64,000 nucleotides of DNA from an uncultured Victivallales bacterium (GTDB lineage: Bacteria; Verrucomicrobiota; Lentisphaeria; Victivallales; UBA1829). Position 1 is the stretch's first letter; every line of letters starts with the position of its first letter. The translations under genes and the position numbers were made by a program. The notes under the pieces were generated by a model. The model searched no databases and had not been told where the DNA came from. It saw nothing but the letters and a program-made list of their open reading frames with translations. Shown one piece after another: positions 1,562 through 63,755 of the stretch. The DNA is taken from the NCBI GenBank assembly GCA_944390795.1, contig CALXRI010000005.1, positions 84,842 to 148,841 of the forward strand. The letters run 5' to 3'.

Positions 1562-1984
1562 TCACTCCCAGTTCGTGATGTCGGCGTTCTCGCCTTCGCC
1601 GCCAGGCTGGCCGTCGGCGCCGTAGCTCATGATGTCAAACTCGCGGTGTTCGCCGGGATACACGTAAATGTAGTCGTTGCCCCAGGGATCCTTCGGCACC
1701 GAAGGCTGGAGATAGGGGCCGTTCCATTTGGCGTTCTGATCGACGTTTTCGACCAGCGCACGGAGTCCGACGGTCGAATCCGGATAACTCCCGACATCCA
1801 GCCGGAAGCCGGTCAGAGCCTCCTCCAGAAGCTTGATCTGGGTCCTGGCGGCGCCGACATTCGCCTTCTTGACATAGTTCAGATAAAGCGGCGTCGCAAT
1901 GGACGCCAGCGTGACCAGAATAATGATCACGACGACGACTTCGATCAGGGTGAAGTCCGTTCTTTTCCATCTCTTTCTTCTCAT
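1562..1984 (-). CDS. gspG: major pseudopilin GspG
   Basis: MRRKRWKRTDFTLIEVVVVIIILVTLASIATP..., later DPWGNDYIY and SYGADGQPGG, which are typical GspG signatures. The track ORF (to 2548) is over-extended. ATG at 1984 overlaps the gspF stop (ATGA). Confidence 0.93.
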   Translation of the reverse strand: MRRKRWKRTDFTLIEVVVVIIILVTLASIATPLYLNYVKKANVGAARTQIKLLEEALTGFRLDVGSYPDSTVGLRALVENVDQNAKWNGPYLQPSVPKDPWGNDYIYVYPGEHREFDIMSYGADGQPGGEGENADITNWE

Positions 1985-3198
1985 ATCTTGGGTCCTCCTT
2001 GACTGATTGAGTTGATTTCCATCATAGCCACAAAAATCGATACCACGACAATCAGAACCACGAGCGCCAGAAACACAATCACCGCCGGCTCGAACAGACT
2101 CAGCAGGCGCTTGATCTTCAGGCGCGTGTCGTTTTCCAGATGGTTCGCGATGCGCGAAAGCATCTCGCCGACGGTTCCGGACTCCTCGCCGACCCGCAGC
2201 ATCGGCACCATGCCCGCGGGCACAAACACATTTCCCGCAAGGGCGGCGGAAAGTTTCGCGCCGCCCTTGAGCTTGCGCGAGATATCGCTGAAAGCCTTTG
2301 CCACCACGGGGTTGGAAAGAATCCTCCCGGAGATCCGCACCGTCCGGATGATCTCCACATGATTTGCGATCAGAATCGAAAGGGTGCGGATGTATTTGCA
2401 CATCTCCAAATCCACGATGATCCGTCCGAACAGCGGCAGCGAGAGCAGGAATCTGCTGTAATTGTAGCGGAACGCCTCCTCCCCGAAAAATTTCTTGAGT
2501 CCGGTCCATGCGCCGATCACCAGGCACGGAATCACCCACCATGCCCACGAGGCAAAGGCGCTGACCCCCAGCAGAAAGTTCATCGAGGGCGGCATTTCCC
2601 GCCCCATGTCCTCGAAAATCTTCGCGAAACGCGGTACGAACACGGTGAACAGAAGCACCGTCACAATCAGCGTGATCGAAAGAATCGCAAGAGGATAAAT
2701 CGAACTTGAAATGATGAAATCCTTGAGTTCCTTGCTCTCCCCCATGAACTTGTAGAGCTGCCCGACCACTTCGGGGAGGCAGCCGGTCTCCTCGCCGCTC
2801 TCGATCAGATTCGCATAATATCCCGGAAAAAGCGACCCGTGGGACCGAACCAGTTCGGAGAATTTTTTACCTTCATGAAGCCCCTGCCGGAGAGAGTTGA
2901 CAAAATCGCGCTGTTCCGGATCGACCGCGCTTTCGGCAATGATCGCGAGCGCTTTTTCCAGCGGAATGAAGGAATCCAGAAGCGGGGCGAGCTGACGCGT
3001 GAAGTCATAGGTGTCAATTCTGGAACGGCGGAACATCAGGCCGCCCTTCCCGCCGACGGAAACCTCGCCGTAGAAGCGCACGGGCGTAACCTGGCGGCTG
3101 CGAAGCTTGCCAAGCGCCTCCTTCTCGTTGTCCGCCTCGATCAGCATTTCCTGCGGCTGTTCGCCCTTCGCCGCGGCAAGATATTTGTAAAGCCCCAT
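1981..3198 (-). CDS. gspF: T2SS inner-membrane platform protein GspF
   Basis: 405 aa with the duplicated GspF-type domain layout and three hydrophobic segments. Located between gspE and gspG. Confidence 0.9.
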   Translation of the reverse strand: MGLYKYLAAAKGEQPQEMLIEADNEKEALGKLRSRQVTPVRFYGEVSVGGKGGLMFRRSRIDTYDFTRQLAPLLDSFIPLEKALAIIAESAVDPEQRDFVNSLRQGLHEGKKFSELVRSHGSLFPGYYANLIESGEETGCLPEVVGQLYKFMGESKELKDFIISSSIYPLAILSITLIVTVLLFTVFVPRFAKIFEDMGREMPPSMNFLLGVSAFASWAWWVIPCLVIGAWTGLKKFFGEEAFRYNYSRFLLSLPLFGRIIVDLEMCKYIRTLSILIANHVEIIRTVRISGRILSNPVVAKAFSDISRKLKGGAKLSAALAGNVFVPAGMVPMLRVGEESGTVGEMLSRIANHLENDTRLKIKRLLSLFEPAVIVFLALVVLIVVVSIFVAMMEINSISQGGPKI

Positions 3199-3213: not shown

Positions 3214-4803
3214 TTACAGTTCGGCCGTGGAGCGGTTGAGCTCCTCCTGCGTGGTGACGCCCGCGGCCACCTTTGCCGCTCCGTCCTGCTGCAGGGTCAC
3301 CATGCCGTGCCGGACCGCGATCTCCTGCAGTTCAGAACTCGACGCATTGCGGTTGACCGCCGTGCGAAGCTCGTCATCCAGAAACAGCAGTTCAAAAATG
3401 CCGGAGCGCCCCTTGAATCCGCTGCCGTTGCAGCGGCGGCACTTCACCCCGTGTTCATCCGTGCCCTTTCCATGGCAGACGGTGCAGATTTTCCGGACAA
3501 GACGCTGCGACAGCACCCCGTAGAGCGCGGATGAGACGAGAAAGTTTTCCACGCCCATGTCCAGAAGACGCGTCACCGCGCCGACCGCGTCGTTCGTGTG
3601 CAGTGTGCTCAGAACCAGATGCCCGGTAAGCGCGGCATTGATCGCGATATCCGCCGTTTCGCGGTCGCGGATCTCGCCGACGAGAATGATGTCCGGGTCC
3701 TGCCGGACAATGCTCCGCAGACCGTTGGCGAAGGTCACGCCGATTTTTGCGTTGACCTGCATCTGGCAGAGTCCGCGCATCTTGTATTCCACAGGATCTT
3801 CGACGGTGATGATTTTCTTGCGGCTGTCATTGAGCTGGCTGATCACGCTGTACAGTGTCGTGGTCTTGCCGCTTCCGGTCGGGCCGACAACAAGAATCAT
3901 GCCGTGCGGAATGCTGATGAGGCGCCGGAACTGCGCGAGATGCTCCGGCGACATGCCGAGCGTCTGCAGGTCAAAGGAGATCGCATCCTGATTCAGAAGG
4001 CGCAGAACAATGCTCTCACCCGTCAGAATCGGGATCGTGCTGATGCGCATGTCAAGTTCGGTGCGCCCGAGCTGAACGTTCGTGCGCCCGTCCTGCGGGA
4101 GACGGCTTTCGGCGATGTTGAGCCCGCCGAGCAGCTTGATGCGCGACGCAATTGCGGGAAACTGGTTCAGCGGACAGCTGATGATTTCGGTGAGCACGCC
4201 GTCCACGCGGCAGCGCACCGCGACGTGATCCTCGTCCGGCTCGACGTGAATGTCGCTGGCGCCGAGCTCGATCGCCTGTGTGAAGATGTCGTTCACGAGC
4301 CGGACGATCCGCGCCTCGCCCGCCATCGTGCGGAGCGTGTTTTCGTCATCGACGTCGACCGCCGCCTCCTCGTCTTCCTCCTCCATGCTCTGCGCCTTGC
4401 TGAGAAGCCGCTCAAGAAACGTCCGGCGCACAAAACGGAACTGTGCCTTGCGCTTCCAGCTCTTCTGGACCAGGAACGTCAGCTGATCCAGCGAATAGGG
4501 ATCCACGACGAGGAACGTGATCGAATCCTCTTCCCATTCATAGGGAAGACAGACGTTCGCGTTGAAGAACTCCAGCGGCGCATTCGGGAACGGTTCCGGC
4601 TGACGGATTTCGTCCTCGGCAAGCACCGGAACGCCGTATGCCTCAGAATAAAGCGCAATGAGTTCGGGCTCGGTTGCGGCGGAAGACTGCACGAGCGCGC
4701 GGTCCCCCTCACGGGACGGCCCGGGAGAGTCGGGAAAACGCGCGGCGAAAAGCTGTCTGAGTTTTTCGTGCGGGGAAAGGCTCTTCACGTCAGAAGAGGT
4801 CAT
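3214..4803 (-). CDS. gspE: T2SS ATPase GspE
   Basis: Walker A GPTGSGKTTT, Walker B ILVGEIRD, His box GHLVLSTLHTN, tetracysteine CTVC...CRRC. Confidence 0.93.
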   Translation of the reverse strand: MTSSDVKSLSPHEKLRQLFAARFPDSPGPSREGDRALVQSSAATEPELIALYSEAYGVPVLAEDEIRQPEPFPNAPLEFFNANVCLPYEWEEDSITFLVVDPYSLDQLTFLVQKSWKRKAQFRFVRRTFLERLLSKAQSMEEEDEEAAVDVDDENTLRTMAGEARIVRLVNDIFTQAIELGASDIHVEPDEDHVAVRCRVDGVLTEIISCPLNQFPAIASRIKLLGGLNIAESRLPQDGRTNVQLGRTELDMRISTIPILTGESIVLRLLNQDAISFDLQTLGMSPEHLAQFRRLISIPHGMILVVGPTGSGKTTTLYSVISQLNDSRKKIITVEDPVEYKMRGLCQMQVNAKIGVTFANGLRSIVRQDPDIILVGEIRDRETADIAINAALTGHLVLSTLHTNDAVGAVTRLLDMGVENFLVSSALYGVLSQRLVRKICTVCHGKGTDEHGVKCRRCNGSGFKGRSGIFELLFLDDELRTAVNRNASSSELQEIAVRHGMVTLQQDGAAKVAAGVTTQEELNRSTAEL

Positions 4804-7183
4804 TGGACCAGAACTCCTTCGTTGTCATGATGCGCGGTTTGGAAAGGAACACGCCGTTCTTGCCGGAAAGATTGTCGTCAAAGTCGTTCAGCGCCTTCAG
4901 CGCGTCATTGTAACGTTCGATCAGCTCCTCGACCTTGTTGCGTTCATTGACAATGTAACCTGTCACGAGCACGAGGATTTCCGAACGGTCCACGGAGGCG
5001 TCGGTCGAACCGATCAGGCGCCGCAGAATGGGAATCTGGTTGATGATCGGAACAGAATCAAGCTTGTCGGTCTTCTGCTCCTGAATCAGTCCGCCGAGAA
5101 TCATCGTTTTGCCGTTGGCGATCGTCATGTTCGTGGTGATGCTGCGGTTGTTCTTGTTCGGGTTGGGATTTTCCGCCGTCGAATTTGTGTAATCGACGCT
5201 GGAAAGTTCCTGTTCGACCTTCAGAGAAATCAGATCGTTGCTGGTGATCTGCGGCGTCACGGTGAGAGTCACGCCGGTGGTCTCGTAGTCATAGGTATTC
5301 GACATGCTGCCGGAAGACGAGGTGTTTGTGATCGATCCGGTGATGACGGACACCTCGGTGCCGACATTGATCTTCGCCTCGGTATGACTGGAAACCAGAA
5401 GCTGCGGACTGGAGATGATTTTCGTGTTCCCGTTTCCGGCGAGAGCGCGGATGTAGGCGAATTTGTTGCTGGGATTGTCAGGATCGGAGAGAAAATAGCT
5501 GAAGCCTGTCTGACGGTTCGTCGTTCTGGTGATTTCCCCCGTATTTTCGTCCTTGACCGTCGAGGTGGTCGGCGTGGTGAGATCCGTGTAATTGGTTCCG
5601 ATCAGCGAATGGGTCTTGCTGCCGTTGTAGGCGCCGGAGAGCTCAATGCCGAACTGGGTGGATTCCGTCAGGGAAACCTCGACGATGAGCACCTGCAGAA
5701 GCACCTGCGCGGGCACGACGTCCAGACGGTTGAGCAGCGCCTTGATCGAGGCGTAAGTGCGCGGCGTCGTGCGGACCACCAGGCGGTTCAGAACGCCGTC
5801 GGCGAATACACGCACGGGGGTGTTGAAAACGTTGGAATTCCGGTCGGTCAGCGTATTTTCCGTGCTGTTGATGTCGATCTGCCCCGCAACGGTTCTTGTG
5901 TTGGTGTTCCGGTTTCGGTTCACCTGGGCGGAATTGACGGTTTCCATTTTCGTGTTGCCGGTCGTGGTGTCGATCGTCAGGCTGGATCCCTGAATGTCGT
6001 AGATGATCGAAAGCGCCTGCGCCAGCTGGGAGGCCTTGTTGTGGCGCACCTTGTAGACGAACACACGTTCCTGATCCAGAGAATTCGAGCTGTCAAGCAG
6101 ATCCACCCACTGCTGAATCTCCTGAATTGCCTCCTCGGTCGCGGCGGAAACCACGAGAATGTGAAGACGGTCGAGACCGTTGATCTGGACGGAGCCGGGC
6201 GTCTCGGTCTTGTCCGTGATCTGCTGGACGTTGAATCCGAGCACGGGCAGAATGGTTTTTAGCTCATTGGTCAGCTTGCTCGGGAGAATGTTCGAGCAGA
6301 GAATGATTTTGCGCTTCCAGGAGCTTTTCCCGCTCATATCAATGATGTCGAGCAGCTGCTTGAGCTTCGGCATGTTTGCACGGTCGTCGGCGATCATAAC
6401 CGCATTCGGACGCGTCAGTTCAACACAGACGGCATCCTTCCCGATGAACGGCCGGATCTGGTTGACGACCTCCTTGGCGGTGGTGTTCTTAAGCGGATAG
6501 TAAAAGAGCTCTCCGGTGCCGTCGCTGGCAAGGCGCGAGTCGGACTGCTTGGCGACCTTCGGCAGCGCCATGATCCGCAGAAGGGTTCCCTCGACCGTGA
6601 CGCCGGCTCCCGACAGGTTCAGCATCTTGTCGAAGGTGTCCCAGAGTTCGCGCCTCGTCATCTTCTGGTCGATGTTCAGCGTGACAACTCCCTTGAGATC
6701 GCTGTCCGCCAGAAAGTTGAATCCGAGCGCGTCCGCAAAGGAGGGGATCACGTCCAGCAGCGGCGCGCTGTTGAACACCAGATTCACGGTGATCTCCTCA
6801 TCGCCGTTCAGGATCACGAAATCGTCGTAAAAGTGAAGCGGAGTTTTCGGCGTCTCGGGCTTCGGCGCAAGAGCTGTCACGGGAATTTTTTCAGTTTTGC
6901 TTTTCAAAGTCGAGGGAAGCTCCCGCTCCGCATCGGTCTTCACCAGTTCCTCGTTGATGGATTCCGTCGCGCCGCGCACCTTGGAAATCTCCCTTGATTC
7001 CGTTTTCAGGAATGCGAAACGGTCGGCCTTTCCGGGTTCCTCCTTCTTTTCGGAGTCGTCCTGCGTGATCTCATCCAGATCCCTCTGAAGATGGGAACAG
7101 GACTGGAGAAGCAGCACGCCCAGCGACAGCGCGGCAATCCGGAAGATCCGGAGCATCATTCGATTTTCCACAGCATCAATCAT
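4790..7183 (-). CDS. gspD: secretin GspD
   Basis: 797 aa. N-terminal lipoprotein-like signal MMLRIFRIAALSLGVLLLQSC. C-terminal secretin motif GKTMILGGLIQE...VPIINQIPILRRLIG...ILVLVTGYIV. Confidence 0.9.
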   Translation of the reverse strand: MIDAVENRMMLRIFRIAALSLGVLLLQSCSHLQRDLDEITQDDSEKKEEPGKADRFAFLKTESREISKVRGATESINEELVKTDAERELPSTLKSKTEKIPVTALAPKPETPKTPLHFYDDFVILNGDEEITVNLVFNSAPLLDVIPSFADALGFNFLADSDLKGVVTLNIDQKMTRRELWDTFDKMLNLSGAGVTVEGTLLRIMALPKVAKQSDSRLASDGTGELFYYPLKNTTAKEVVNQIRPFIGKDAVCVELTRPNAVMIADDRANMPKLKQLLDIIDMSGKSSWKRKIILCSNILPSKLTNELKTILPVLGFNVQQITDKTETPGSVQINGLDRLHILVVSAATEEAIQEIQQWVDLLDSSNSLDQERVFVYKVRHNKASQLAQALSIIYDIQGSSLTIDTTTGNTKMETVNSAQVNRNRNTNTRTVAGQIDINSTENTLTDRNSNVFNTPVRVFADGVLNRLVVRTTPRTYASIKALLNRLDVVPAQVLLQVLIVEVSLTESTQFGIELSGAYNGSKTHSLIGTNYTDLTTPTTSTVKDENTGEITRTTNRQTGFSYFLSDPDNPSNKFAYIRALAGNGNTKIISSPQLLVSSHTEAKINVGTEVSVITGSITNTSSSGSMSNTYDYETTGVTLTVTPQITSNDLISLKVEQELSSVDYTNSTAENPNPNKNNRSITTNMTIANGKTMILGGLIQEQKTDKLDSVPIINQIPILRRLIGSTDASVDRSEILVLVTGYIVNERNKVEELIERYNDALKALNDFDDNLSGKNGVFLSKPRIMTTKEFWSNDLF

Positions 7184-7218: not shown

Positions 7219-8118
7219 TTATCTTCGGCCGGCGCGTGCGCGGTTCGTCCGCATATTGCCGGTTGCGCTCGGCTGCTGCTGCCGCTGCCGCGCCTGATTC
7301 TGACGCATCATCTGCATCATCTGTCTGTTCTGGAACATCTGCATGCGCTGCATGTTCTGGAGCGTCCGGAGCATCTGGGTTCCGGTGTTCACGCGGCGGT
7401 TCGTGCGACGGACCGTCTGGGGCGCGTTTTTCGAGGCGTCAAGCAGTTCGAGTTCCAGCTTGTCGCTGCCGCGGGTCAGGAGCACGCTGTCGCGGTTCAC
7501 CTCCGCAAGCGTATACCCGTTGCTGAGCGTCTCTCCGAGCCGGACATACTGCTTGTAGGAGACCTGATTGCCGGCGGCCGCCACTGTAATATTGGAATAA
7601 ATCGCCTTCATCTGCCCCCTGACGCCGCGCGCAGCCCCGCGCGTATTCGTGGTATTGACGTTTTCCGTTCTGTTGTTCCGCGCGATTCCCATCTGCCGGC
7701 CCGGAGGCATGATTCCGGGCGGAAGCGGACCGCCGGGAGGAAACGGAGCGTTGCGCCGCGCCGGGGCGCCGGACCCCTTCTGCTTGATGATGGCCCCGAC
7801 ACAGTCTCCGATTTTAAATGTCCCGACCAGCGAAAGTTCGACACGGGTATTTCTGCCGGGCGTGCTCGCATTGGGACAGCGGTCGGCATTGAAGACATTG
7901 GCTTCGATGATCTTTGCAAGCTGCTCGTCCGGCGTCATCTCTTTTTTCCGCGTCTCGGATGCTTTCAAAACCGGCTTTACGGGAGTCTTCAGCGGACGGA
8001 CCGCGGAACGTTTCTTCACGGTGTAAACGGTTTTATCCGCAGACTTGAAATGGGAGGCCACACCCCAGAGAAGCATTGCGGCAAGAAAGAAATTGAACAG
8101 AATCAAGACGGTTTTCAT
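7219..8118 (-). CDS. GspC-like protein (N-terminal TM, HR/PilP-like segments, Q/M/R-rich tail, no PDZ seen)
   Basis: TM helix ILFNFFLAAMLLWGV. Segments LSLVGTFKIGDCVGAIIKQ and YVRLGETLSNGYTLAEVNRDSVLLTRG resemble the GspC HR domain. Operon position is directly upstream of gspD. Confidence 0.5.
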   Translation of the reverse strand: MKTVLILFNFFLAAMLLWGVASHFKSADKTVYTVKKRSAVRPLKTPVKPVLKASETRKKEMTPDEQLAKIIEANVFNADRCPNASTPGRNTRVELSLVGTFKIGDCVGAIIKQKGSGAPARRNAPFPPGGPLPPGIMPPGRQMGIARNNRTENVNTTNTRGAARGVRGQMKAIYSNITVAAAGNQVSYKQYVRLGETLSNGYTLAEVNRDSVLLTRGSDKLELELLDASKNAPQTVRRTNRRVNTGTQMLRTLQNMQRMQMFQNRQMMQMMRQNQARQRQQQPSATGNMRTNRARAGRR

Positions 8119-8798
8119 CTTCGTCCTCCACGACGCTGCGGGATGCGCGCAAGCGTCTTTCCCCCGGGCGGCAGTTCGCCGTCAAAGGCGATCACGCGGA
8201 TGGTTCCGTTGAACATGAGCGTGGTCTGGGTGGCGGCGGTTGTCGCGGTGTTCGACACAACGCGGGTATTCTGCTGATGCGGCGGACGCATCGAAAGATT
8301 CGCCGTGATGCGCCGCCAGGGAAGCGCCGGCTTGTGCGCCTGCAGTTTCGCAATGAAATGCATCAGATTTTCAAACGGTGCGCTGAAGGAGACGTCCAGC
8401 TCCGCAAAATAAAAATCATCATTGATGCGCGAGGTCCGGACGGATCCCAGATTGTTCAGACTGATATCCGTCTCTTTCGCCGTGCTTTCAACAGCCTGAC
8501 GGAGAAGCAGTTCCGGATCTCCGTCGCGTTCGAACTGCCAGCTGTTCTCGATCATGGCGCTGTATTTCTTCTGGATTTCGTCCATTTCATGAAGCTTCTT
8601 CTGCTGTTCCGTCTGTTCCGCTTCCAGTTTTTTGATCTCCTTGCGCAGCGCCTCCTTTGCCGCCTCGTTCGGGAACCAGGCGGAAAAGCTGCCGCCCAGC
8701 TGGGTCAGGAGGAAAATCCAGCTGATCAGGAGCGCGCCGCATGCGACCGTGAGCTTGCCTTTTCCGGTTTTCAGGAATTCCTTGAGCTTCTCATTCAT
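8115..8798 (-). CDS. GspM/PilO-like bitopic membrane protein
   Basis: Single TM LTVACGALLISWIFLLTQLGG followed by a coiled coil. ATGA overlaps on both sides within the T2SS operon. Confidence 0.5.
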   Translation of the reverse strand: MNEKLKEFLKTGKGKLTVACGALLISWIFLLTQLGGSFSAWFPNEAAKEALRKEIKKLEAEQTEQQKKLHEMDEIQKKYSAMIENSWQFERDGDPELLLRQAVESTAKETDISLNNLGSVRTSRINDDFYFAELDVSFSAPFENLMHFIAKLQAHKPALPWRRITANLSMRPPHQQNTRVVSNTATTAATQTTLMFNGTIRVIAFDGELPPGGKTLARIPQRRGGRR

Positions 8799-10018
8799 TT
8801 TCGTTCCTCCGAGGAAACGAGTTTCAGCATGATCGTATTCGTCGTATCATTGTTCCTCCTGCGCTGCTGAATCTGTTCAATCTTCCAGAACTTCAGGGGA
8901 CGGATCATTTCCGGCACATTCAGACTTTCGGCCTCGCTGCGCAGCGTAAGGTCGACACTGTTGTCAGTCCAGCGCAGATTTGTGACCATGACATTGTTCG
9001 GCAGGACTTCGGAAAAGCGCGCCAGTTTTCCGATCACGTCACGCTCCCCCGGAGACTGATGAATGACGCGTGTCAGCTCGCGGAGTTCCTTTTCCGCCGT
9101 CTTGAGCTTCCGCTGGGAATTCATGACCTGTGTCCGGAGACGGTTCCGCGCGGCAGTCAGCGAGGAATACTCCCTGCGGTTGGCGGAGAGACTGCCGGCA
9201 AGTCCCCATGCGAAGTTCACGAACAGCAGAACCAGCAGCAGCGCGGTCAGACGCAGCTGATTGCGCAGACGGCTCGGACGCAGCTGCCGGGGCAGGACAT
9301 TGAGCCCCGCAAATGTATGCTTCACGTCAGCGGTGGCGGCAAGACGCGCGCACAGGAGACAGCCAAGCCATTCGGAAAGCTTGAACTCCGGATCATCCGG
9401 CAGCAGGAAGCTGCCGCGCATTTCCTTTTCCCAGAAGGAAAGCCACGCCGGCGGCAAGTCTGCTGCCGGATGCCATTCCCCGTCATCAAAATAAAAGTCA
9501 CTTTCCACTTCGGGCAGATAAACGGGGCCGTCGGATTCCCGGAGCGCAAGAAGCGGATAAACGAAATAATCGGCTTTCCCGATGCTCTGCGTCAGCATGG
9601 CGGCAAGACGCTCCTTGTCCATGGCGGGAAACGCGTAGACATTCACGGGAATGTTCTCGCCCTCCCCGCCGGGAAGAGCGACGAATTCCAGCTCAAAATC
9701 CGCAGTATCCTGAAGCAGTCTCCGGGGAAGTTCAAATTCCAGGGCGTTGCGCATCGCCTTCGGAGCAAGTCTTACGCCATTGCAGCGGAAAAAAGTCCCC
9801 CCTTTCAGCGCTCCGGACAGAATCAGCGGGCAGACACGGCTGTACGATGTCTCCCGCAGAACCTGTTTCCATGCTTTCGCAGGATCGGTTCCGTCATGCG
9901 CGCAAACCGCATAAGATTTCAGCCGGACACCTTTTGAATCGCGGCGGAATGTGCAGCACCTGACGCTGTCGGAGGAAAAAAGAAGAACGGCAAACTCTTT
10001 CAACACGGAAAATTTCAT
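8795..10018 (-). CDS. GspL-like assembly protein (PilM-like cytoplasmic domain + TM + PilN-like region)
   Basis: 407 aa. One central TM LRLTALLLVLLFVNFAWGLAG followed by a coiled coil. Operon context. Confidence 0.5.
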   Translation of the reverse strand: MKFSVLKEFAVLLFSSDSVRCCTFRRDSKGVRLKSYAVCAHDGTDPAKAWKQVLRETSYSRVCPLILSGALKGGTFFRCNGVRLAPKAMRNALEFELPRRLLQDTADFELEFVALPGGEGENIPVNVYAFPAMDKERLAAMLTQSIGKADYFVYPLLALRESDGPVYLPEVESDFYFDDGEWHPAADLPPAWLSFWEKEMRGSFLLPDDPEFKLSEWLGCLLCARLAATADVKHTFAGLNVLPRQLRPSRLRNQLRLTALLLVLLFVNFAWGLAGSLSANRREYSSLTAARNRLRTQVMNSQRKLKTAEKELRELTRVIHQSPGERDVIGKLARFSEVLPNNVMVTNLRWTDNSVDLTLRSEAESLNVPEMIRPLKFWKIEQIQQRRRNNDTTNTIMLKLVSSEERK

Positions 10019-10037: not shown

Positions 10038-10925
10038 TTACTGTTTCGAAGGAGTGCCGCGTCCGGCCTCGGACTGTTTCAGAAGTTTCATGACACCCTG
10101 CCGGTAGGCTTCCGGATCGTCCCGCCGCAGAGCATCCAGCTTCCGCATTTCAGCAGGATATTTTTTCCGCAGCGCCATGATCTGCCGCACGGGATTCACT
10201 CGCGGCGTGCGCGGCATGACATCCTCGCCGGATCCGGCCTGAGCGAATCCGCCGCCGGAACGGCGCATCTCCGGCATTTTCACTCCGGCCTTCTGCATCA
10301 GCTCCCAGGTCTTCAGATAGGCGGCGCGCGGTTCATCGGTGCGAAGTCTTTCAATTTCCTCAAATTCCGCCCTGAATTTGCCGGAGTTCTTGAGCTCCGC
10401 CATTTTCAGCTGCACGGATTCCATCGTCGCCGGCAGTTCGACATTTGCCTTGGCCGCCAGCGCCTCAAGCTTATTTTCCGCCTGAATCCGCTGTTTCTCA
10501 ACTTCCGCATATTCCGCGGGATATTTTTTCTTCAGCTCCGCCTCCACGGCTGCGCGCCGGTTTCTCATATTCGGAAACATCCCCATGGCGCCGCGCCGGT
10601 CATGCCTCCAGCCGGACATGGAAGAACGGTCGCCCCGGAATCCTCCCCTGGAGGACGGAAGCTTCATGGAAGCTTCAGAGGCAAGCTCCCGCATTCTCTC
10701 CAGAGCCGCAAACAGATTGACTGCCTGAAGATTTTCAATTTCCTTGAACTTTTCCGGATACTTCTTTTTGAGCGCCGCCTGAATTTCAGCCCATTGCGCG
10801 GAATTGTCCTGCCGGGCACGGTCATGCTCCCCGTTCCGGAAACGCTGTCTGCCCGATTCCTGTGCGGAGAGCATGAGGCAGGCGACAGCAAGCAGCAAAA
10901 TCCCCGCTGTTGTTGTACGTTTCAT
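10038..10925 (-). CDS. secreted helical repeat protein (4 x 'KKKYPxE(F/Y)' repeats), first gene of the T2SS operon
   Basis: Start trimmed to ATG 10925 (MKRTTTAGILLLAVACLMLSAQE signal peptide, GGGAG RBS 8 nt upstream). Repeats: LKKKYPEKFKEIENL, LKKKYPAEYAEVEKQ, GKFRAEFEEIERL, LRKKYPAEMRKLDAL. Confidence 0.7.
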   Translation of the reverse strand: MKRTTTAGILLLAVACLMLSAQESGRQRFRNGEHDRARQDNSAQWAEIQAALKKKYPEKFKEIENLQAVNLFAALERMRELASEASMKLPSSRGGFRGDRSSMSGWRHDRRGAMGMFPNMRNRRAAVEAELKKKYPAEYAEVEKQRIQAENKLEALAAKANVELPATMESVQLKMAELKNSGKFRAEFEEIERLRTDEPRAAYLKTWELMQKAGVKMPEMRRSGGGFAQAGSGEDVMPRTPRVNPVRQIMALRKKYPAEMRKLDALRRDDPEAYRQGVMKLLKQSEAGRGTPSKQ

Positions 10926-11188
10926 ACGAATTACTCCCAGAATCTGATTGAACACCCATCCAGCCAAATATTCGCTTAACGTAACAACTTTGCCATTTAT
11001 TGTGCAAAAATCAAGGGGAAATTCCATTTTTCTGAAAAAAATATCTTTTCGTTTTCCGGAAAGAGTCTCTTTTTTCACGGAATCCGTCATGCGGGGGGCA
11101 GACAGGGAGGGAAAAGGCAGGCGGAACGAATACTTTCCCTGGCGGAAGCAGGCATTTCCAGGCGGAGTGCGTTCAGGAAAGAGGGGAA

Positions 11189-14092
11189 TCAGCGGGGCAG
11201 ACACTTCACGCCGGCGATTTTTCCCTTGAAAAAGGAGATGCCGTTCTGGCCGGCGCCCAGCGCCGTCGCGCGCGGCAGCATGAGGCAGCCGGAGAAAGGC
11301 ACTTCCTTCCCGGGAAGTCCGTTGACCTCCACCCGCAGGGAGCTTCCGTCGAACAGAACACGGATCATGTTCCATTCCTTCGCCCGGAGTCCGTCCGCCG
11401 CGGCTCTTACCACCGCGGCGCGCTCACCTTTCCGGTAAAAGCGGTTGCCGGAGAACAGTGCAGCCGAAACCCTGCCGCCGGTGAACGTCAGATTGAAACC
11501 GTTGATTCCGCTGCTGAAAAGGGTTTCGGGGCGCTCCGGCAACGCATCCGGCATGGCTTTGAGTTCAAGTTCAAAACCGCAGTAAGGGGGAACCACATGC
11601 AGGGGCAGACTGACATAGTTGCAGTCCCGGAACTGCAGGCTCCAGCTTCCGTCGGGTTCCCGGACATACGCGGGCGTCTGATTTCCCACGCCTGGAAGAT
11701 TTGCGCGCAGGGAACGCCACGGGAGATTGCCGTAACCGGCCTCGCCGGAACCGTATCCTGTCGCGAGCGGAACAAATCCGCCGAGAATCCCGCTGTATTT
11801 GCTTCCCGCCGCGCAGGGAACCACAGAACCGTACCGCGGATGAAAACGATATTCAAATTCCGTGAGGAGATTCACGTCCGCCTCCACAGGAAACACCCGT
11901 TCCTTTTCCATGTCAAACACGTGAATGACACGGGTTGTGCCCGACGGTCGGTAAAGAGAAACGACGCTTCCCCGGTAAATCCCGTAATCCTCGTCGAGCG
12001 CGAGAATGGAGTAGACCGCATTTTTGTCCGAAGGACGGACAATCGCGGAAAACTCCGCAGTATTTTCGAAAAGCGGTTCCGGCATGGACACCTGGGACAG
12101 GAAACGGGAGATGACCAGATTGGAACCGTCCGGACCGCCGATTCCGGAAATCCCCTGTTTCATCAGATCCGCCGTCCGGATTCTGCCATGCATCGGAGGC
12201 AGATCCACGATCAGTTCACCGCTTTCCATATCCCGTCGCTTCATTGCCAGATAGACGGAAAATGGATACAGGCTGAATTCCACATTCCGGTAGAGCATCT
12301 TTCCATCCCGGAACCTGACGCCGCGGGCGCTTTGCACAGCCTCCGGGGAACAGTTCAGCGCAATCGCGCCGTTGAATATGCGTTTTTTCGAAGCCTGATG
12401 GGAAATGCTCAGAATGACGGTGTCATCATCCTCCTTCGGGAAGCTCCGCTTCGCATGGGAGTAAATGACATTGCTTCCCTCCAGAATCTCCGCACTGCGC
12501 AGTTTTTTCGGGGAGGAAACTCTTCCTTTCAGCAGCAGCGTCCCATCCGGTCGTCTTTCCGCCACGGCAAGCTCGCTCCGGATCCCTTTCGGAAGATCGC
12601 GCAGCGGGTGTTTCACCCATTTGTAATCCATGTTCCAGTTGGCGCGGATCTCAACCGGCGCCATGGCATCGGAAAAGACAAGGCGTTGTCCGTTCCAGGA
12701 TACGGAAAATTCCGGGCGGACGACCTGATGCCGGAGCAGTTCCGCACAGGGCATCCGGAACCAGGCGGAATCTGCAAGTTCGCAGCCGCGAAGAGAAAGA
12801 GGGGAAAAGGTTTTCACCGTATTTCCCCTGAGATCCTTCAGATGCGCCTCGATCCGGAACACCGTGTCGTCCCATATGCCGTCCGGGACATTTGCAACTT
12901 CCATTTCGAGCCATTCCCCCGCACTCAAAGTCCGGCGGTAGCTGACAATCAGATTGGGGATTGACAAATCGTCGCCGGGAAGCGGTGAAGGTTTTCCGCC
13001 GGCCAGCAGCGCCGCATAGGCCCGGACAATCCGCTGTGTGGAAAAAGAGTTGCGGACCGTCGGACGGAAATGGGTATGTTCGTTCTGTTCATCCCATTCC
13101 GTCATGACGATGAAATCAGGGCGGAGAAAACGCGCGGCCTCCAGCTTGTGCCGCAGGAAAGTCGTCCCCGTGCAGTCCAGGGTATGCGTGAAACGGTAGG
13201 AATTCGAATGTTCCGCAACCACGGCATAACCCAGTATTTTACTTCGAAACTCTTCCTCGGAATAAACACTGTTCAGAATCGGAAGGATGACCTGCCGTTC
13301 AAAATCCAGGTTGAATCTGCGTTTCCAGACGGAACTCCGGTCGCTGAAGAAAATTCCGTCCGCCGCGCGCAGCTCGGTGCGCAGCTCCTCCTTCATGCGT
13401 TCAATGGTTCTCCCGTCCAGTTTCCTGTTCGGCCGGAACGTCCTGAAACTCACATAGGGCAGGTAAAGAAAACGATCTCCATAACGCTCCCGGAGTTTCC
13501 GCCTGAGTTCCCTCGAATATGCCGGGGTTCCTCCGGGATAGCGGGTAAGGACAATTTTTCCGTTGATGCAGAAGACGTTGGGAGCCTTCATGGCAAGCCC
13601 CGCCATTTCCAGATCGGTTTCAAGCGGTTTTTTCCCCATTGGAACCAGCTCCACGAGAACAGGAAGCTCCGCGCCCTTCAGAAGTGAACGGGAAAAAAGA
13701 TCGCGCCGTCCGGAAGTCGCCGGGAAAAACGCCGCGCCGTCCATGCCGCCGAGGCGGATCGTTGCAGCCATCCGGCGATAGGCGGATTCATTGATGAAAT
13801 GCCGGGGATCATTTTTTTCCGCCAGCGAGGAATCCTGCATCAGAGGCCGATCCAGCCATTTATGCAGATAGTCGTCCCGTTCCAATCCGTATTTCAGCTG
13901 CGTCCGCACAAAGAGGAACGGCCGTTCCGTATGCGCCCGGCGGCGCGGAGCCTCCCGCTTCATGCGCTCAAGCGCAGCCGCGGCGTCCGGCGCAGGCGGC
14001 ATGCAGGGAAGATGACATTCCGCTCCGGAAGCGGAGGCGGTCAAAGCCGAAAGGATTCCTGTTAAAAGCAATCCGTAATGTTTCGTTTTCAT
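11189..14092 (-). CDS. large exported protein with C-terminal LamG/concanavalin-like domain; possible glycoside-hydrolase-like core
   Basis: ATG at 14092 with GGAG 6 nt upstream. Signal peptide MKTKHYGLLLTGILSALTASASG. C-terminal LRVEVNGLPGKEVPFSG...FFKGKIAGV is LamG-like. The motif IVMTEWDEQNEHTHFRP resembles GH71/GH99-type WNDYGE/NEWHE motifs (weak). Confidence 0.6.
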   Translation of the reverse strand: MKTKHYGLLLTGILSALTASASGAECHLPCMPPAPDAAAALERMKREAPRRRAHTERPFLFVRTQLKYGLERDDYLHKWLDRPLMQDSSLAEKNDPRHFINESAYRRMAATIRLGGMDGAAFFPATSGRRDLFSRSLLKGAELPVLVELVPMGKKPLETDLEMAGLAMKAPNVFCINGKIVLTRYPGGTPAYSRELRRKLRERYGDRFLYLPYVSFRTFRPNRKLDGRTIERMKEELRTELRAADGIFFSDRSSVWKRRFNLDFERQVILPILNSVYSEEEFRSKILGYAVVAEHSNSYRFTHTLDCTGTTFLRHKLEAARFLRPDFIVMTEWDEQNEHTHFRPTVRNSFSTQRIVRAYAALLAGGKPSPLPGDDLSIPNLIVSYRRTLSAGEWLEMEVANVPDGIWDDTVFRIEAHLKDLRGNTVKTFSPLSLRGCELADSAWFRMPCAELLRHQVVRPEFSVSWNGQRLVFSDAMAPVEIRANWNMDYKWVKHPLRDLPKGIRSELAVAERRPDGTLLLKGRVSSPKKLRSAEILEGSNVIYSHAKRSFPKEDDDTVILSISHQASKKRIFNGAIALNCSPEAVQSARGVRFRDGKMLYRNVEFSLYPFSVYLAMKRRDMESGELIVDLPPMHGRIRTADLMKQGISGIGGPDGSNLVISRFLSQVSMPEPLFENTAEFSAIVRPSDKNAVYSILALDEDYGIYRGSVVSLYRPSGTTRVIHVFDMEKERVFPVEADVNLLTEFEYRFHPRYGSVVPCAAGSKYSGILGGFVPLATGYGSGEAGYGNLPWRSLRANLPGVGNQTPAYVREPDGSWSLQFRDCNYVSLPLHVVPPYCGFELELKAMPDALPERPETLFSSGINGFNLTFTGGRVSAALFSGNRFYRKGERAAVVRAAADGLRAKEWNMIRVLFDGSSLRVEVNGLPGKEVPFSGCLMLPRATALGAGQNGISFFKGKIAGVKCLPR

Positions 14093-14094
14093 CT

Positions 14095-14880
14095 TCACTC
14101 CCAGGTGAAATATTTTTCCGTGACGGCGCTGTTCAAGTGCGTTTTTCCGTTTTTGAGATATCCCGTGTGCCCGTCGGCGAAAAGAAGATTGGTTCCGCCG
14201 CTGTGCAGATCGTGAATATACAGCCCGTTGGAAAAGGAGACATAGGAGCCGGCATTGAATTCCGTCTTCGTTTCGGCAAGAAGGAAACAGCTGGAAAATT
14301 TTTTCATTTCGGAGATCTTCACCGGAATCCAGCGTCTGGGATCTCCGGATCCGAGAACATTTTTATGGGAACCGACATAATTGTTGTTATAACCGTAACC
14401 GATGAAAGTCCATGACGCGGCGCCGCCCGGACCGACCGCATGGATGAAAACGTCAAGATCCCGATGAAAATTGGATTCCGGCGGCATGATTCCCGCGGCT
14501 GTGGGGCATTTATAAATTTTTCCCGTCGGAATGTACTTTTCCCGCTGGAACATCCATGCCCAGTTCCAGTAGTTCTTGTTGATTTCCCCCCCGCTCAAAT
14601 CGCTGAGATCCGCAGGGGGAAAAAAATCCCGGCTGTCACTGACGTAGGAATGAAAGGCGGCGCCGAACTGTTTCAGATTGCTGCCGCAGCTGATCCGGTG
14701 CGCGGCTTCTCTCGCCTTCCGGAGACCCGGCAGCAGCATGGATGCCAGAATCGCAACGATTGCAATCACAACCAGAAGTTCTACCAGTGAAAAAGATTTT
14801 CTCCGGAAAGCCGATGCCGCCTGATCCCGCACAACAAAAACGGAAACCGGATAGAACAAACATGTATGATGCCGCAGCAT
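14095..14880 (-). CDS. DUF1559 'H-X9-DG' protein with prepilin-type N-terminal methylation domain
   Basis: [24 protein letters not shown], and C-terminal [13 protein letters not shown] (H-X9-DG). ATG 14880 is preceded by GGGAGG. The stop lies 2 nt before the next gene's start. Confidence 0.85.
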
Positions 14881-14910
14881 GAAAAAAACCTCCCTGTCAG
14901 GCTTTTCCAT

Positions 14911-14954
14911 TTGACTTTTTCATATCATTATACTACAATAACGCACGATGGCAA
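14911..14954. promoter_or_regulatory. overlapping divergent sigma70-type promoters (AraC gene rightward, DUF1559 operon leftward)
   Basis: Plus strand: TTGACT(14911-16)-17 nt-TACAAT(14934-39). Minus strand: TTGCCA(14954-49)-16 nt-TATAAT(14932-27). Confidence 0.45.
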
Positions 14955-14993
14955 TGATAAAAGTGATTATATTCTTTGCAGAAGTGATCAAAA

Positions 14994-15887
14994 ATGAAAT
15001 CCTTTTCTGAAAAATGTCTGAAAGCGGCTGAATCTCTTCCGGATTTTGCCTATTCCGTTCCCGGATTCCCGGATTTTCCCCCGTTCATGCCGTACCGCAT
15101 TCAGTTTTATTACCGCAGGAGGAACCGGGACACCAATACATTTTTCCATAACCGCTACATCCTGGCATGTCTTCTTGCCGGAAATGCCCGGCTTGAAATC
15201 AATAAGCGCCTCTGCTCCCTGAAACCGCTCCAGCTGTATCTGGTTTTCCCGGGAGAGTCGCACAGGATTCTGTCAGGACAAGACGAAGGAAGTTCCATGC
15301 TGTTCTGTTCCTTCCATCTGCACGACGAGCAAAAAGCCATGGATGTTCTCCGGGGGACCATTCTGGAAAGCGATGCCGGAATCCGGCGTCTTCTGCTTTG
15401 CGCGCTCCGGGATTTCCTGATCCATTATCCCGAGGGGAATCGTGAGATCAATACGACGCCCTATCTTCTGGGTGAACTTCTGGAACGTCTGCGGGTGAAG
15501 AACTGTCCCGCGCCTCCGGAAACGTTCCGCAAGACGAATTATTCCGACGAAGGAAGCGAACTTTACCGGAAAATCTCCCGGTATATCGTGGAAAATCCGC
15601 ACCGGAAAATCACGATTGCGGAACTGAGCCGCCGTCTGGGCGTTTCGGCAAGCAATCTCAGAAGATGCTTCAAAAGACAAATCGGGAAAAGTCTGGGAAA
15701 GTATCTCCGGTCCAGAAGAATGATGTTCGCCGCGGGGCTCCTGCGATCCTCCGGTCAGAACATCAGCCAGATTGCCGCATTATGCGGGTATCGCTCCGCG
15801 GCGGCATTCTCCCGCGCATTCAAACGGGAGGAGACCCGTTACAGTCCATCCGAATTCCGTAAAAAAATCCGTGCGCCGCTTTCATGA
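14994..15887 (+). CDS. AraC-family transcriptional regulator
   Basis: C-terminal double HTH: ITIAELSRRLGVSASNLRRCFKRQIGKS...ISQIAALCGYRSAAAFSRAFKRE. Confidence 0.85.
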   Translation: MKSFSEKCLKAAESLPDFAYSVPGFPDFPPFMPYRIQFYYRRRNRDTNTFFHNRYILACLLAGNARLEINKRLCSLKPLQLYLVFPGESHRILSGQDEGSSMLFCSFHLHDEQKAMDVLRGTILESDAGIRRLLLCALRDFLIHYPEGNREINTTPYLLGELLERLRVKNCPAPPETFRKTNYSDEGSELYRKISRYIVENPHRKITIAELSRRLGVSASNLRRCFKRQIGKSLGKYLRSRRMMFAAGLLRSSGQNISQIAALCGYRSAAAFSRAFKREETRYSPSEFRKKIRAPLS

Positions 15888-17627
15888 TTTCGAAATGGTT
15901 TTCCCCCCCGGATGAAACCATTTCGGTACACCGGCGGCCCGCAGTTCCGCAATCTGCCGGGCATGTTCCGTGAGAATCTGTCCGCGGGACCAGTCAAGCG
16001 AAGGATCGCGGTACGGCGTACCGGCGGTGGACTCCAGCGCAATGCAACGGTCTTTCTCCCGCAGCGGGGACAGATGGTCAAGCGCATGAAGCGATGCAAC
16101 AGTTCCGCCGCGCTTCCGTCCGAACGGGACGGATTCTGAAACAAAAAAACCGGTCCGGAGCAGCGCCCCCAGAAACGGATAGGCGCTCGAATAGGCTGCC
16201 AGAATGCCGAAGGGATTCAGAACCCGTTTCAATGCGGCGAGAAAGTCCAGCGTCCAGAGCTCCGGGTTCCGGTCCGGGGAAAATGCGTCGAGGAAAATGA
16301 AATCAAACTTTTCACCGGTCTCCTGCACATAACGCCGCGCGTCGCCCCAGGCAATTTCGATCCGGACGAAGGCGCTCCGGTAACACCCGGCGGAAGCCAG
16401 TGTCTCAAGCACATCCTTTCGCGGGAAATCCGGCAGAGACAGCGCATTGCGCAGCGTATTGCGGTCCGATTCCAGAGAGATGCAGCGGAGCATGCCCGCT
16501 CCCGTATGTTCGGCAAGTTCCGTGAGAGCGGCCGCGTTGTATCCCATCCCGAATCCGACATCCAGAACCGTGACGGAGCCTCCTTCCTTCAGACGCTCCC
16601 CGATCCGGCAGGGCTCAATGTATTTCTTCCAGGATTCCGTCCGCGCACCGGCAACGCTGTGAAAATGCTGACGGTATCCGGGATGGTAGAGCGTATAGGA
16701 CCCGTCCTCCGTCCGCACCGCGCGGACTCCGTCGTCGCGTCCGGCGGCTCGAGACTCGAAAACCGTGCGGAACATGGAAAGAAACTGCCCTTTCTTCATC
16801 CACCACTTCGGCGCGATCACCTCGGAAGCATCCGCATCGGCGCAGAGGCGCATCACAATGGTCTTTTCCGGCAGAACGGAAAGAAAATCAGCAAGCGCAT
16901 CGGCATATTCGTATTCATTGAACGCCGTCACTTCGCCGTTGTGGAACATCCGCGCCATCTCCGTACCTTTCAGAACCAGAAGGTTGTGCACCTTGATCCC
17001 GGAAAAGGGAAGTGAAGCTATTTTTTCCGCGGTCGCGCGGAAATCCGAAGCCGTCTCGCCGGGCAGTCCGAGAATGACATGCGCGGCGACTTTGATCCCC
17101 TGCGCGTCCAGACGCCTCGCCGCATCCTCGACGGCGGCGAAATCATGTCCCCGGTTGATTCTCCGGAGGGTAAGATCATTGGCGCTCTGGACTCCAAGTT
17201 CCACCCAGACTTCATAACGGCGTGCCAGCGAAGCCAGATATTCCACACACTCGCCGGAAAGACAGTCCGGACGGGTCGCAATGAGAACGGCTCTGTAATC
17301 CGCCGTGCAAAGCGCCTCCTCATACAGATGCCGGAGAACGGACACTTCGCCATAGGTATTGGTGAAAGACTGGAAATAGGCCAGATAAGGACCGTCCGAC
17401 GCATACCGCTCCCGGACATAGCGGATGCCGCGCCGGGCCTGTTCCGCAAGACTCATGCCGGGCGAAAGATGCCTCGCCGCGGAACCGTTTCCGGCGCAGA
17501 AGGCGCACCCGCCGGAACCGTCCGGATTCCGGTTGGGACAGGAAAGTCCGAGATCGAACGGAATCCGCTGGAGCGGTTTTCCATAGCGTTCAGCAAGATA
17601 ATCCCGGAAAAAACGAAGCTGTTTCAT
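15882..17627 (-). CDS. fusion protein: TIGR01212/YhcC-type radical SAM domain + MnmC2/MnmD-type SAM methyltransferase domain
   Basis: N-terminal half has LSCPNRNPDGSGGCAFCAG (TIGR01212-type cluster motif) and ELGVQS. C-terminal half has DGSYTLYHPGYRQHFHSVAGARTES, VLDVGFGMGYN, FLDAFSPDRNPELWT and PFGRKRG (compare E. coli MnmC FLDGFAPAKNPDMWT, GFGRKRE). Confidence 0.8.
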   Translation of the reverse strand: MKQLRFFRDYLAERYGKPLQRIPFDLGLSCPNRNPDGSGGCAFCAGNGSAARHLSPGMSLAEQARRGIRYVRERYASDGPYLAYFQSFTNTYGEVSVLRHLYEEALCTADYRAVLIATRPDCLSGECVEYLASLARRYEVWVELGVQSANDLTLRRINRGHDFAAVEDAARRLDAQGIKVAAHVILGLPGETASDFRATAEKIASLPFSGIKVHNLLVLKGTEMARMFHNGEVTAFNEYEYADALADFLSVLPEKTIVMRLCADADASEVIAPKWWMKKGQFLSMFRTVFESRAAGRDDGVRAVRTEDGSYTLYHPGYRQHFHSVAGARTESWKKYIEPCRIGERLKEGGSVTVLDVGFGMGYNAAALTELAEHTGAGMLRCISLESDRNTLRNALSLPDFPRKDVLETLASAGCYRSAFVRIEIAWGDARRYVQETGEKFDFIFLDAFSPDRNPELWTLDFLAALKRVLNPFGILAAYSSAYPFLGALLRTGFFVSESVPFGRKRGGTVASLHALDHLSPLREKDRCIALESTAGTPYRDPSLDWSRGQILTEHARQIAELRAAGVPKWFHPGGKTISKS

Positions 17628-62935: not shown

Positions 62936-62969
62936 AACATCGGAAGAGTTCGCAAGTGGAGGTGACCTC

Positions 62970-63755
62970 ATGAATTACCGCAGATTCCTTGATAGAGGGG
63001 GAAAGAAATTTCCCGATTCAGAAAAATTTCATGACACGGATTCCGGACGCCGGATTTTCACCTTGATCGAGCTCCTTGTCGTGATTGCGATCATAGCCAT
63101 CCTTGCAGGAATGCTTCTTCCCGCCCTGAACATGGCACGGGAAAAAGCCCGTGCGGTTCAGTGCATCAACAATTTCGGACAGACGGGAAAAGCCATTGCG
63201 ATGTATGTCAACGATCACGGCATGCTTCCGACAACGAAATTCTCCCCCGGATGGACGATCACGGCATCCGGAGACAAGGGTTTTCTGGCGCCTTATCTGC
63301 CGCACCTGAAAAACTATTCCGACTATCAGCTGGGAATGATTGCGCTCAAAGACGGCAGGCAAATCCGGGATCCGTTCGCATGTCCCAGCCAGCCCAATGA
63401 CGGAATTACCACTTCTTTTTACACGATGGGACTGAACTGCATGATGGGAGAATACTGGATCATCAGTGCGGGGAAGAAGGAAAATATTATGCTTTCCACC
63501 TTCAAGAGGCCATCGCAAACCAGTGTCCTGCTGGAAAAAAAGGGTTCAGACCTGGAAGTGTCCTACAACCCGTTTGCGGAAACCGGCTCCACAAAACTTG
63601 AGGGGTTGTTTGCCTTGCGCCATTCCGGAAGCGGAAATGTCGTGTATGCGGATTTTCATGTCGGAAAACGTTCCAGGTCCGATATGCCCGATGCAAAGAC
63701 CGGCTTTCTGAACGGGGACAAGAACATTTTCTGGAATCCTCACAGCACTTATTGA
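62970..63755 (+). CDS. DUF1559 'H-X9-DG'-type protein with prepilin-type N-terminal methylation domain
   Basis: ATG 62970 after [35 protein letters not shown]-terminal HSGSGNVVYADFH (H-X9-DF variant). Confidence 0.85.
   Translation: MNYRRFLDRGGKKFPDSEKFHDTDSGRRIFTLIELLVVIAIIAILAGMLLPALNMAREKARAVQCINNFGQTGKAIAMYVNDHGMLPTTKFSPGWTITASGDKGFLAPYLPHLKNYSDYQLGMIALKDGRQIRDPFACPSQPNDGITTSFYTMGLNCMMGEYWIISAGKKENIMLSTFKRPSQTSVLLEKKGSDLEVSYNPFAETGSTKLEGLFALRHSGSGNVVYADFHVGKRSRSDMPDAKTGFLNGDKNIFWNPHSTY

Follow-up and report, generated by a model that had tools for sequence, protein, structure and literature searches.

A 64-kb stretch of DNA from an uncultured Victivallales bacterium (contig CALXRI010000005.1; the whole stretch is called the window below, and all coordinates are positions in it) carries three adjacent genes, encoding an AraC-type regulator, a pilin-like protein of the DUF1559 family and a secreted protein of 967 amino acids (aa). 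Together they probably constitute a compact, sugar-inducible cassette for glycan degradation in gut Victivallales (Lentisphaerota), in which the DUF1559 protein would act as a dedicated accessory of the exoenzyme. For brevity the 967-aa protein, a putative glycanase, is referred to as the enzyme. The features of the cassette are:

14994-15887, plus strand: araC, regulator of the AraC/XylS family, 297 aa (open reading frame and Pfam/NCBIfam matches)
14881-14993: divergent control region between the DUF1559 gene and araC
14095-14880, minus strand: DUF1559/H-X9-DG prepilin-like gene, 261 aa
14725-14793, minus strand: pilin-type hydrophobic N-terminus of its product, FSLVELLVV read at 14793
14170-14205, minus strand: C-terminal H-X9-DG motif, read directly from the translation
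11189-14092, minus strand: gene of the 967-aa secreted multidomain protein, the putative enzyme
14027-14092, minus strand: Sec-type signal peptide, about residues 1-22 (MKTKHYGLLLTGILSALTASAS), read from the sequence
12968-13930, minus strand: (β/α)8 barrel, about residues 55-375, putative catalytic domain, GH99/GH71-like
13088-13099, minus strand: E332-W333-D334-E335, putative catalytic dyad motif
11693-12955, minus strand: several β-sandwich domains, about residues 380-800
11192-11692, minus strand: C-terminal LamG (concanavalin-A-like) domain, about residues 800-967

The stop codon of the DUF1559 gene occupies 14095-14097 and the ATG of the enzyme gene at 14092 begins 2 nt later, the spacing given in a preliminary description of this DNA; an alternative GTG start at 14098 would yield 969 aa and overlap the DUF1559 stop (GTGA). 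The DUF1559 gene could itself start at 14910 (271 aa), but the ATG at 14880 is favoured, as it has a GGGAGG Shine-Dalgarno sequence and its position is conserved in relatives. The nearest genome is an uncultured Victivallales metagenome-assembled genome (MAG; locus L012), whose enzyme is 87% identical; an identical contig occurs in an ENA metagenome (L001, the same contig).

The 967-aa protein and its barrel

AlphaFold2 modelled the full-length protein with high confidence (predicted local distance difference test, pLDDT, 93; predicted template-modelling score, pTM, 0.92); residues 1-29 have low pLDDT, and the region of about residues 380-800 is all-β with pLDDT above 88. A fold search with the full-length model returned mainly matches of low template-modelling (TM) score to multidomain GH2 and GH43 enzymes, and the search turned informative only with the barrel modelled separately. 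This second model (pLDDT 88.7) has eight alternating strand/helix units, and when it was compared with the PDB by Foldseek, GH99, with most of the places, and then GH71 filled the top 43 ranks bar one unrelated barrel (E 4e-9 to 2e-5, TM 0.55-0.65). The best match is MANEA (6zfa; E 3.9e-9, TM 0.64), followed by BtGH99 and BxGH99; the first GH71 match is 9fnf (E 7e-7), and the remaining TIM barrels have E-values of at least 1e-4 and TM scores of about 0.4.

The putative catalytic motif lies directly after strand β8 (residues 327-331) of the model. Residues E332, D334, E335, N337, E338, T340 and P344 are invariant in an alignment of 59 members, and E332-W-D-E335 is likewise invariant in a second set of 20 sequences. 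An EW[H/G]E motif, universally conserved in GH99, holds both catalytic glutamates of that family (PMC11025385), and the D-x-x-E dyad of GH71 is found in the same place, the start of the β8-α8 loop (PMC12394665); the third residue of the window motif is Asp, where GH99 has His or Gly. The preliminary description had proposed a GH71/GH99-like WDExxE motif; the kinship with these families stands, with a like fold and an invariant dyad, but the motif is better read as E332-W-D-E335. Given a barrel of this fold and an invariant EWDE motif at the β8-α8 loop, the predicted glycanase activity is most likely endo-acting and directed at an α-linked glycan.

Some observations weigh against this assignment. 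By sequence models the barrel of the window protein has neither a Pfam match nor a PDB sequence match, and E332 and E335 are equated with E404 and E407 of GH99 by motif identity and strand order; moreover, the neighbouring genes point to no particular substrate. Sequence searches of the PDB with the full protein, a full-length profile and a barrel profile returned LamG domains only, plus an insignificant GH71 match at E 0.33. When 20 barrel sequences were scanned with Pfam, GH71 was found in four (best E 0.025) and GH99 in two (E 0.065), all of them below threshold; these two were the only carbohydrate families in the scan. The barrel is placed in neither GH99 nor GH71 proper, both sequence-model tests failing (PF16317 for GH99, to which the window protein has no match, and PF03659). 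We conclude that the barrel, as modelled, belongs to the GH99/GH71 superfamily as a distant relative whose putative dyad is intact. The 967-aa protein thus appears to be carbohydrate-active in type, as had been supposed, on the strength of its barrel, its invariant ExxE dyad and its LamG domain.

The signal peptide and the C-terminal LamG domain of the preliminary description were both recovered, the former from the sequence itself and the latter by profile and homologues. The sole Pfam match of the window protein is Laminin_G_3 (20.8 bits, under the cut-off of 27.6); the family profile matches LG/LNS domains of neurexin and laminin (E 1.7e-10 to 8e-8), PF13385 is present in most homologues, and the C-terminus of the window protein is a β-sandwich in the model. 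The C-terminal domain is therefore identified, at profile level, as a LamG jelly roll, one that likely binds carbohydrate.

Homologues of about 950-1000 aa (127 in number) were found in Lentisphaeria, Kiritimatiellia, Chthoniobacteraceae and Planctomycetes, all of them labelled hypothetical or "LamG domain-containing", with no annotation beyond LamG. A profile of the N-terminal domain retrieved 541, 322 and 266 representatives (clusters at 50% identity) at E-values up to 1e-3, 1e-10 and 1e-30, respectively, among 1.84 billion. The enzyme family is thus small (about 270-540 clusters) and resides mostly in bacteria of the Planctomycetes-Verrucomicrobia-Chlamydiae (PVC) group. Its members frequently occur as tandem paralogues (L004, L009, L017, L031, L062, L079), and a genome may have as many as six of them (Chthoniobacteraceae SMAG_U13472 is one example); fusions to GH28/β-helix modules are seen occasionally (P0022, 1675 aa). 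Some members with an adjoining DUF1559 gene are assigned to "Abditibacteriia", and copies lacking one to Chitinophagaceae and to MAGs of Armatimonadota (L057, L064, L086, L068, L082); these are either true transfers outside the PVC group or binning errors.

The neighbourhood of the enzyme family is a glycan-degradation setting. Homologue loci carry sulfatases, FGE-sulfatase, GFO/IDH/MocA oxidoreductases, GH20, GH42-like and DUF4838 proteins, in 13 cases a GH28+GDPD fusion, and also NAGPA and metallophosphoesterase; tandem enzyme paralogues and regulators of the LacI, GntR or AraC type are further constituents. Three unrelated types of phosphodiesterase (GH28+GDPD, NAGPA and metallophosphoesterase) recur beside the GH99-like family, as do sulfatases and FGE-sulfatase (L002, L027, L042 and others), which hints at a glycan decorated with phosphodiester or sulfate groups as the substrate.

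The DUF1559 protein and its pairing with enzyme genes

The 261-aa protein has the pilin-like N-terminus and the H-X9-DG tail ascribed to it earlier. It scores 28.4 bits with N_methyl (cut-off 21.2), 18.2 bits with TIGR02532 (cut-off 16.3) and 41 bits with PF07596 (SBP_bac_10/DUF1559; cut-off 23.3), the last over profile positions 2-54 of 268 only; the score with the H-X9-DG model TIGR04294 is borderline (18.9 bits, cut-off 19). A C-x-SNLKQ motif and a conserved pair of cysteines are present as well, and in 17 DUF1559 homologues F1, L3, E5, C36, C96, N202 and D207 are invariant, with H209 also conserved. All familiar marks of a DUF1559 protein, that is, pilin-type N-terminus, C-x-[SN]NLKQ region and H-X9-DG tail, are therefore in place; it differs from the family in the residue preceding the pilin-type segment (Ser in place of Gly/Ala at position -1) and in its central region, which diverges from the Pfam model. 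The N-terminal helix matches those of geopilin, PilE and GspG in alignments limited to the helix; the scores with equivalog models of pseudopilins and pilins lie far under their cut-offs (GspG 23 vs 88.85, GspH 18.5 vs 80, PilA 25 vs 400 bits). At E-values up to 1e-5, 6550 homologues were collected, named H-X9-DG or DUF1559 in their source. DUF1559 is the largest paralogue family of planctomycetes, with 68-74 copies per genome; in the literature we found remarks in genome censuses only, and no functional study of DUF1559/H-X9-DG proteins.

The association of DUF1559 genes with exported enzymes, which the preliminary description had wanted tested, was examined in 78 loci of the enzyme family taken from genomes; a DUF1559-like open reading frame (ORF) was counted as adjacent if it lay within 250 bp. 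It was found in 27 of the 78 loci, where about 2.7 were expected, and all 27 copies lie on the strand of the enzyme gene (15 upstream, 12 downstream), with gaps from -10 to +81 nt that are mostly below 30 nt. DUF1559 is the commonest neighbour family (43 genes in 36 loci), and its density is 0.19 per kb beside the enzyme vs 0.019 per kb in the farther flanks (Poisson P 2e-18, a value that overstates independence, as related loci are counted as independent). Of the 16 enzyme clusters, 7 contain paired genes, and the pairs come in two gene orders; the enzyme-adjacent DUF1559 copies group in sequence clusters of their own, and distances among the enzymes correlate with those among their DUF1559 partners (Mantel r 0.38, reached in 0 of 2000 permutations). 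The pair is co-inherited in many lineages, in either order.

Two results speak against an obligate bond: about two thirds of the family loci have no adjacent DUF1559 gene, and for all 17 Kiritimatiellia copies no DUF1559 gene was found anywhere in the flanks. With so many loci lacking an adjacent copy, the enzyme has no strict need of a neighbouring DUF1559 gene.

A divergent araC gene accompanies the pair in the window clade and in two others, in the order AraC/DUF1559/enzyme or AraC/enzyme/DUF1559. The closest DUF1559 homologues are all flanked by a regulator on one side and on the other by a large secreted protein, most of these with glycan-active domains:

L170: AraC, DUF1559 (52% identical), 965-aa member of the window enzyme family
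L090: AraC, DUF1559, 1503-aa GH42/GH2_N protein
L171: LacI ... DUF1559, 1075-aa protein
L172: GntR, DUF1559, β-helix protein, then LamG protein
L173: GntR, DUF1559, 1287-aa LamG+CBM9+GH123_N protein

In a broad metagenome sample of DUF1559 neighbours, small ORFs that look lipoprotein-like in translation come after many copies of the planctomycete type; the sample suffers from short contigs (no clear ORF in 28 of 80 loci) and from spurious ORFs in DNA of high GC content. The small ORFs indicate that a large enzyme as partner marks a subclade, that of the window, and not all DUF1559 proteins; planctomycete copies often precede small lipoprotein-like ORFs, whereas those of the window subclade precede large exoproteins. 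In genomic terms, the partnership of DUF1559 and enzyme is genuine, and within this subclade it is general. A second, similar cassette begins at the end of the window, where the gene of a GntR + Peripla_BP_3 regulator (61844-62935, plus strand) overlaps another DUF1559 gene (62919-63755, plus strand), whose downstream partner lies beyond the window end.

Control region and neighbouring secretion genes

The regulator scores above cut-off with HTH_18 (71.5 bits, cut-off 33.6), HTH_AraC (55.4 bits) and AraC_binding (24.3 bits, cut-off 21.1), and is built from an N-terminal cupin-type AraC_binding sensor and a C-terminal double helix-turn-helix. Within the 83 bp that separate the longest ORFs, two σ70-like sites face each other: TTGCCA-16-TATAAT for the operon (14954 to 14927, minus strand; 11 of 12 positions of the consensus) and TTGACT-17-TACAAT for araC (14911 to 14939, plus strand; 10 of 12). 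The overlapping promoters at 14911-14954, from which araC had been said to diverge, are thus matched exactly by promoter-like sites. Direct repeats of AAGTGAT at 14961-14967 and 14982-14988, 21 bp apart, abut the -35 element of the operon and lie inside the araC leader. Their geometry resembles that of the AraC I1-I2 sites; against this it has to be said that a pair of 7-mers may arise by chance and is weak evidence alone. The control region (14881-14993) is near-invariant across the window and its relatives L012 and L013, more so than the flanking coding sequences and proteins; in L013 it is nearly identical although the enzyme is just 75% identical. With a divergent araC and a conserved control region, the layout of a substrate-responsive utilisation locus, as proposed earlier, is borne out.

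A block of genes for a type II secretion system (T2SS) is located downstream of the enzyme gene:

8795-10018, minus strand: 407-aa protein of the T2SS block
8115-8798, minus strand: GspM-like protein (weak T2SSM_b match)
7219-8118, minus strand: GspC-like protein (weak T2SSC match)
4790-7183, minus strand: secretin
3214-4803, minus strand: GspE
1981-3198, minus strand: GspF
1562-2002, minus strand: GspG (T2SSG, 2.8e-40)

These genes begin about 1.2-2.4 kb downstream of the enzyme gene on the same strand, and not 3 kb away as first estimated. Downstream of the enzyme gene, as far as the next gene, the minus strand showed no terminator-like site, so read-through into the T2SS genes is possible. 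A conserved link between the cassette and the T2SS, by which the preliminary description had presumed the DUF1559 protein to be processed and assembled, was considered and rejected: the two are adjacent only in L001 and in the 87% relative L012, and the T2SS is absent beside the cassette in the 75% relative and elsewhere. The gene between enzyme and T2SS block (10038-11027, minus strand) encodes a secreted, highly charged protein of 329 aa with three KKKYPxE repeats, which matches no family and whose conservation is limited to L012. On the other side of the cassette, the gene at 15882-17627 (minus strand) encodes an MnmL/YtqA tRNA-modification radical-SAM protein (TIGR01212, 284 bits) fused to an MnmC2-type methyltransferase domain; it is convergent with araC, and the 3′ ends overlap by 6 nt.

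Nor does the DUF1559 protein have the canonical prepilin leader. The residue before the pilin Phe (-1, codon 14794-14796) is Ser, not Gly, which makes its cleavage by a prepilin peptidase uncertain and counts against the reading preferred below. In the enzyme loci L012-L089 (mostly Lentisphaerota), only 10 of 43 motifs carry Gly or Ala at -1, vs 80 of 88 in the broad metagenome sample, and the genuine GspG of the window T2SS has Asp there. The scarcity of Gly/Ala at -1, even in GspG, suggests from sequence that the prepilin peptidase of this lineage may have an altered specificity, or that cleavage may not take place; by motif search no prepilin peptidase was found in the window. At the same position the minor pseudopilins (506-931 and 928-1479, both minus strand) have Leu, His or Phe, and the second DUF1559 protein of the window has Ile (63054-63056).

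Proposed mechanism, alternatives and known systems

According to the reading we prefer, a regulator with a cupin-type sensor, transcribed divergently from a two-gene operon of DUF1559 and enzyme, would probably bind the 21-bp-spaced repeats by the operon -35 element, thereby activating the operon and regulating its own synthesis. The second gene of the operon encodes a Sec-exported putative enzyme of about 105 kDa, whose GH99/GH71-superfamily barrel most likely attacks an α-linked glycan while the β-sandwich and LamG domains would hold the polymer. The DUF1559 protein would be a pilin-like partner, anchored in the inner membrane or borne on a pseudopilus, which might help its cognate large enzyme to cross or to stay at the envelope, or might capture substrate or products; it would not be a structural pseudopilin of the neighbouring T2SS. 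As the layout of regulator, DUF1559 and large exoprotein recurs with other secreted proteins, the cassette would be one instance of a general design of PVC bacteria. A wider and tentative reading, which we hold to be doubtful, is that each DUF1559 protein serves one large exo-glycanase as its dedicated pilin-like partner. Such proteins would form a modular layer for recognition or display that links the enzyme or its substrate with a type IV filament or a machine like the T2SS; this layer would be the PVC counterpart of the SusC/D polysaccharide utilisation locus (PUL), with an altered prepilin peptidase in Lentisphaerota.

The DUF1559 protein might instead be a cargo-specific pseudopilin, cleaved by the peptidase and placed on the pseudopilus of the T2SS encoded downstream, where it would recruit the cognate enzyme to be exported through the outer membrane; this sharpens the proposal of the preliminary description. 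The homology of its N-terminus to the helices of GspG, PilE and geopilin fits such a role, and so does the complete T2SS operon, which shares the strand of the enzyme gene and is not set apart from it by a terminator-like site; the tight, near one-to-one pairing and co-divergence with the enzyme, and hundreds of paralogues beside different exoproteins, would also accord with cargo recognition. Yet the T2SS is not adjacent even in the 75% relative, the equivalog scores fall far short (23 vs 88.85 bits for GspG, 18.5 vs 80 for GspH), and Gly/Ala is missing at -1, though the bona fide GspG lacks it here as well; we consider this explanation rather unlikely. It is possible, too, that the protein is a pilin-anchored binder of glycans or oligosaccharides, a stand-in for SusD that captures polymer or products for uptake or sensing and makes no contact with the enzyme. 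Such a binder would recall the archaeal "bindosome", whose sugar-binding proteins have signal peptides of the pilin type. The Pfam name SBP_bac_10 and the designation of DUF1559 as a solute-binding family in two papers (PMC2754498, PMC4807772) agree with this idea, as do the huge paralogue expansion, which mirrors the diversity of glycan loci, and the position of the gene at the head of regulator-controlled glycan operons; the lack of a transporter gene in the three-gene cassette, a Pfam match confined to the first 54 profile positions and a length of about 200 residues, short for a periplasmic-binding-protein fold, make it the more unlikely of the two.

Incidental adjacency of an abundant family, next to a 967-aa protein that is a non-catalytic LamG adhesin or lectin, seems highly improbable. 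DUF1559 is, to be sure, the most expanded planctomycete family, two copies lie within the 64-kb window, and the barrel escapes every sequence model; but the tenfold density beside the enzyme, the unvarying strand and short gaps, and the separate sequence clusters of the enzyme-adjacent copies are at odds with chance, and an invariant acidic motif in a confidently modelled GH99-like barrel argues for catalysis.

DUF1559 gains here a genomic context with statistical support: its genes are co-oriented with, and tightly coupled to, those of large secreted proteins of glycan-active type, controlled by AraC, LacI or GntR regulators. This opens pairwise experiments for an otherwise vague pilin-like family. 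The enzyme family, small and with a putative active site of the GH99/GH71 type, is present in PVC bacteria from the gut and the environment and may represent a new glycoside hydrolase family or a distant branch of GH99/GH195; the residues to be mutated are evident.

Among known enzymes, GH99 (MANEA, BtGH99, BxGH99) is closest in fold and has an E-W-x-E where the β8-α8 loop begins, to which the EWDE directly after strand β8 of the window enzyme putatively corresponds; the overall build likewise points to endo action in an extended cleft. The window enzyme differs in being about 11-13% identical and lacking a PF16317 match, in being longer by some 600 residues, which form its β-sandwich and LamG domains, and in belonging to a family restricted mainly to PVC bacteria. 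GH71 (AnGH71C, Agn1p), second in fold similarity, also has a barrel followed by a β-sandwich and a D/E-x-x-E dyad at what is putatively the same position; its dyad starts with Asp (DYGE), whereas that of the window family starts with Glu, like GH99. GH195, described in 2026 from Polaribacter as an endo C6-sulfate α-1,3-mannanase "distantly related to GH99" (PMC13063451), works alongside sulfatases, which some loci of the window family also carry, but its source belongs to the Bacteroidota, and it forms part of a fusion with a sulfatase and a T9SS domain; compared by description only, it could be the same family as the window enzyme or a sister family. As to the whole locus, the PULs of Bacteroidota are likewise substrate-specific clusters under a regulator, with a secreted glycan-degrading enzyme and a recurrent non-catalytic accessory gene. 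The window cassette has no TonB-dependent transporter, and no SusC/SusD pair was found among its genes or those of its flanks; its accessory is pilin-like instead, and it may be as small as three genes. It is thus a variant of the glycan-utilisation cassette that is new in its make-up.

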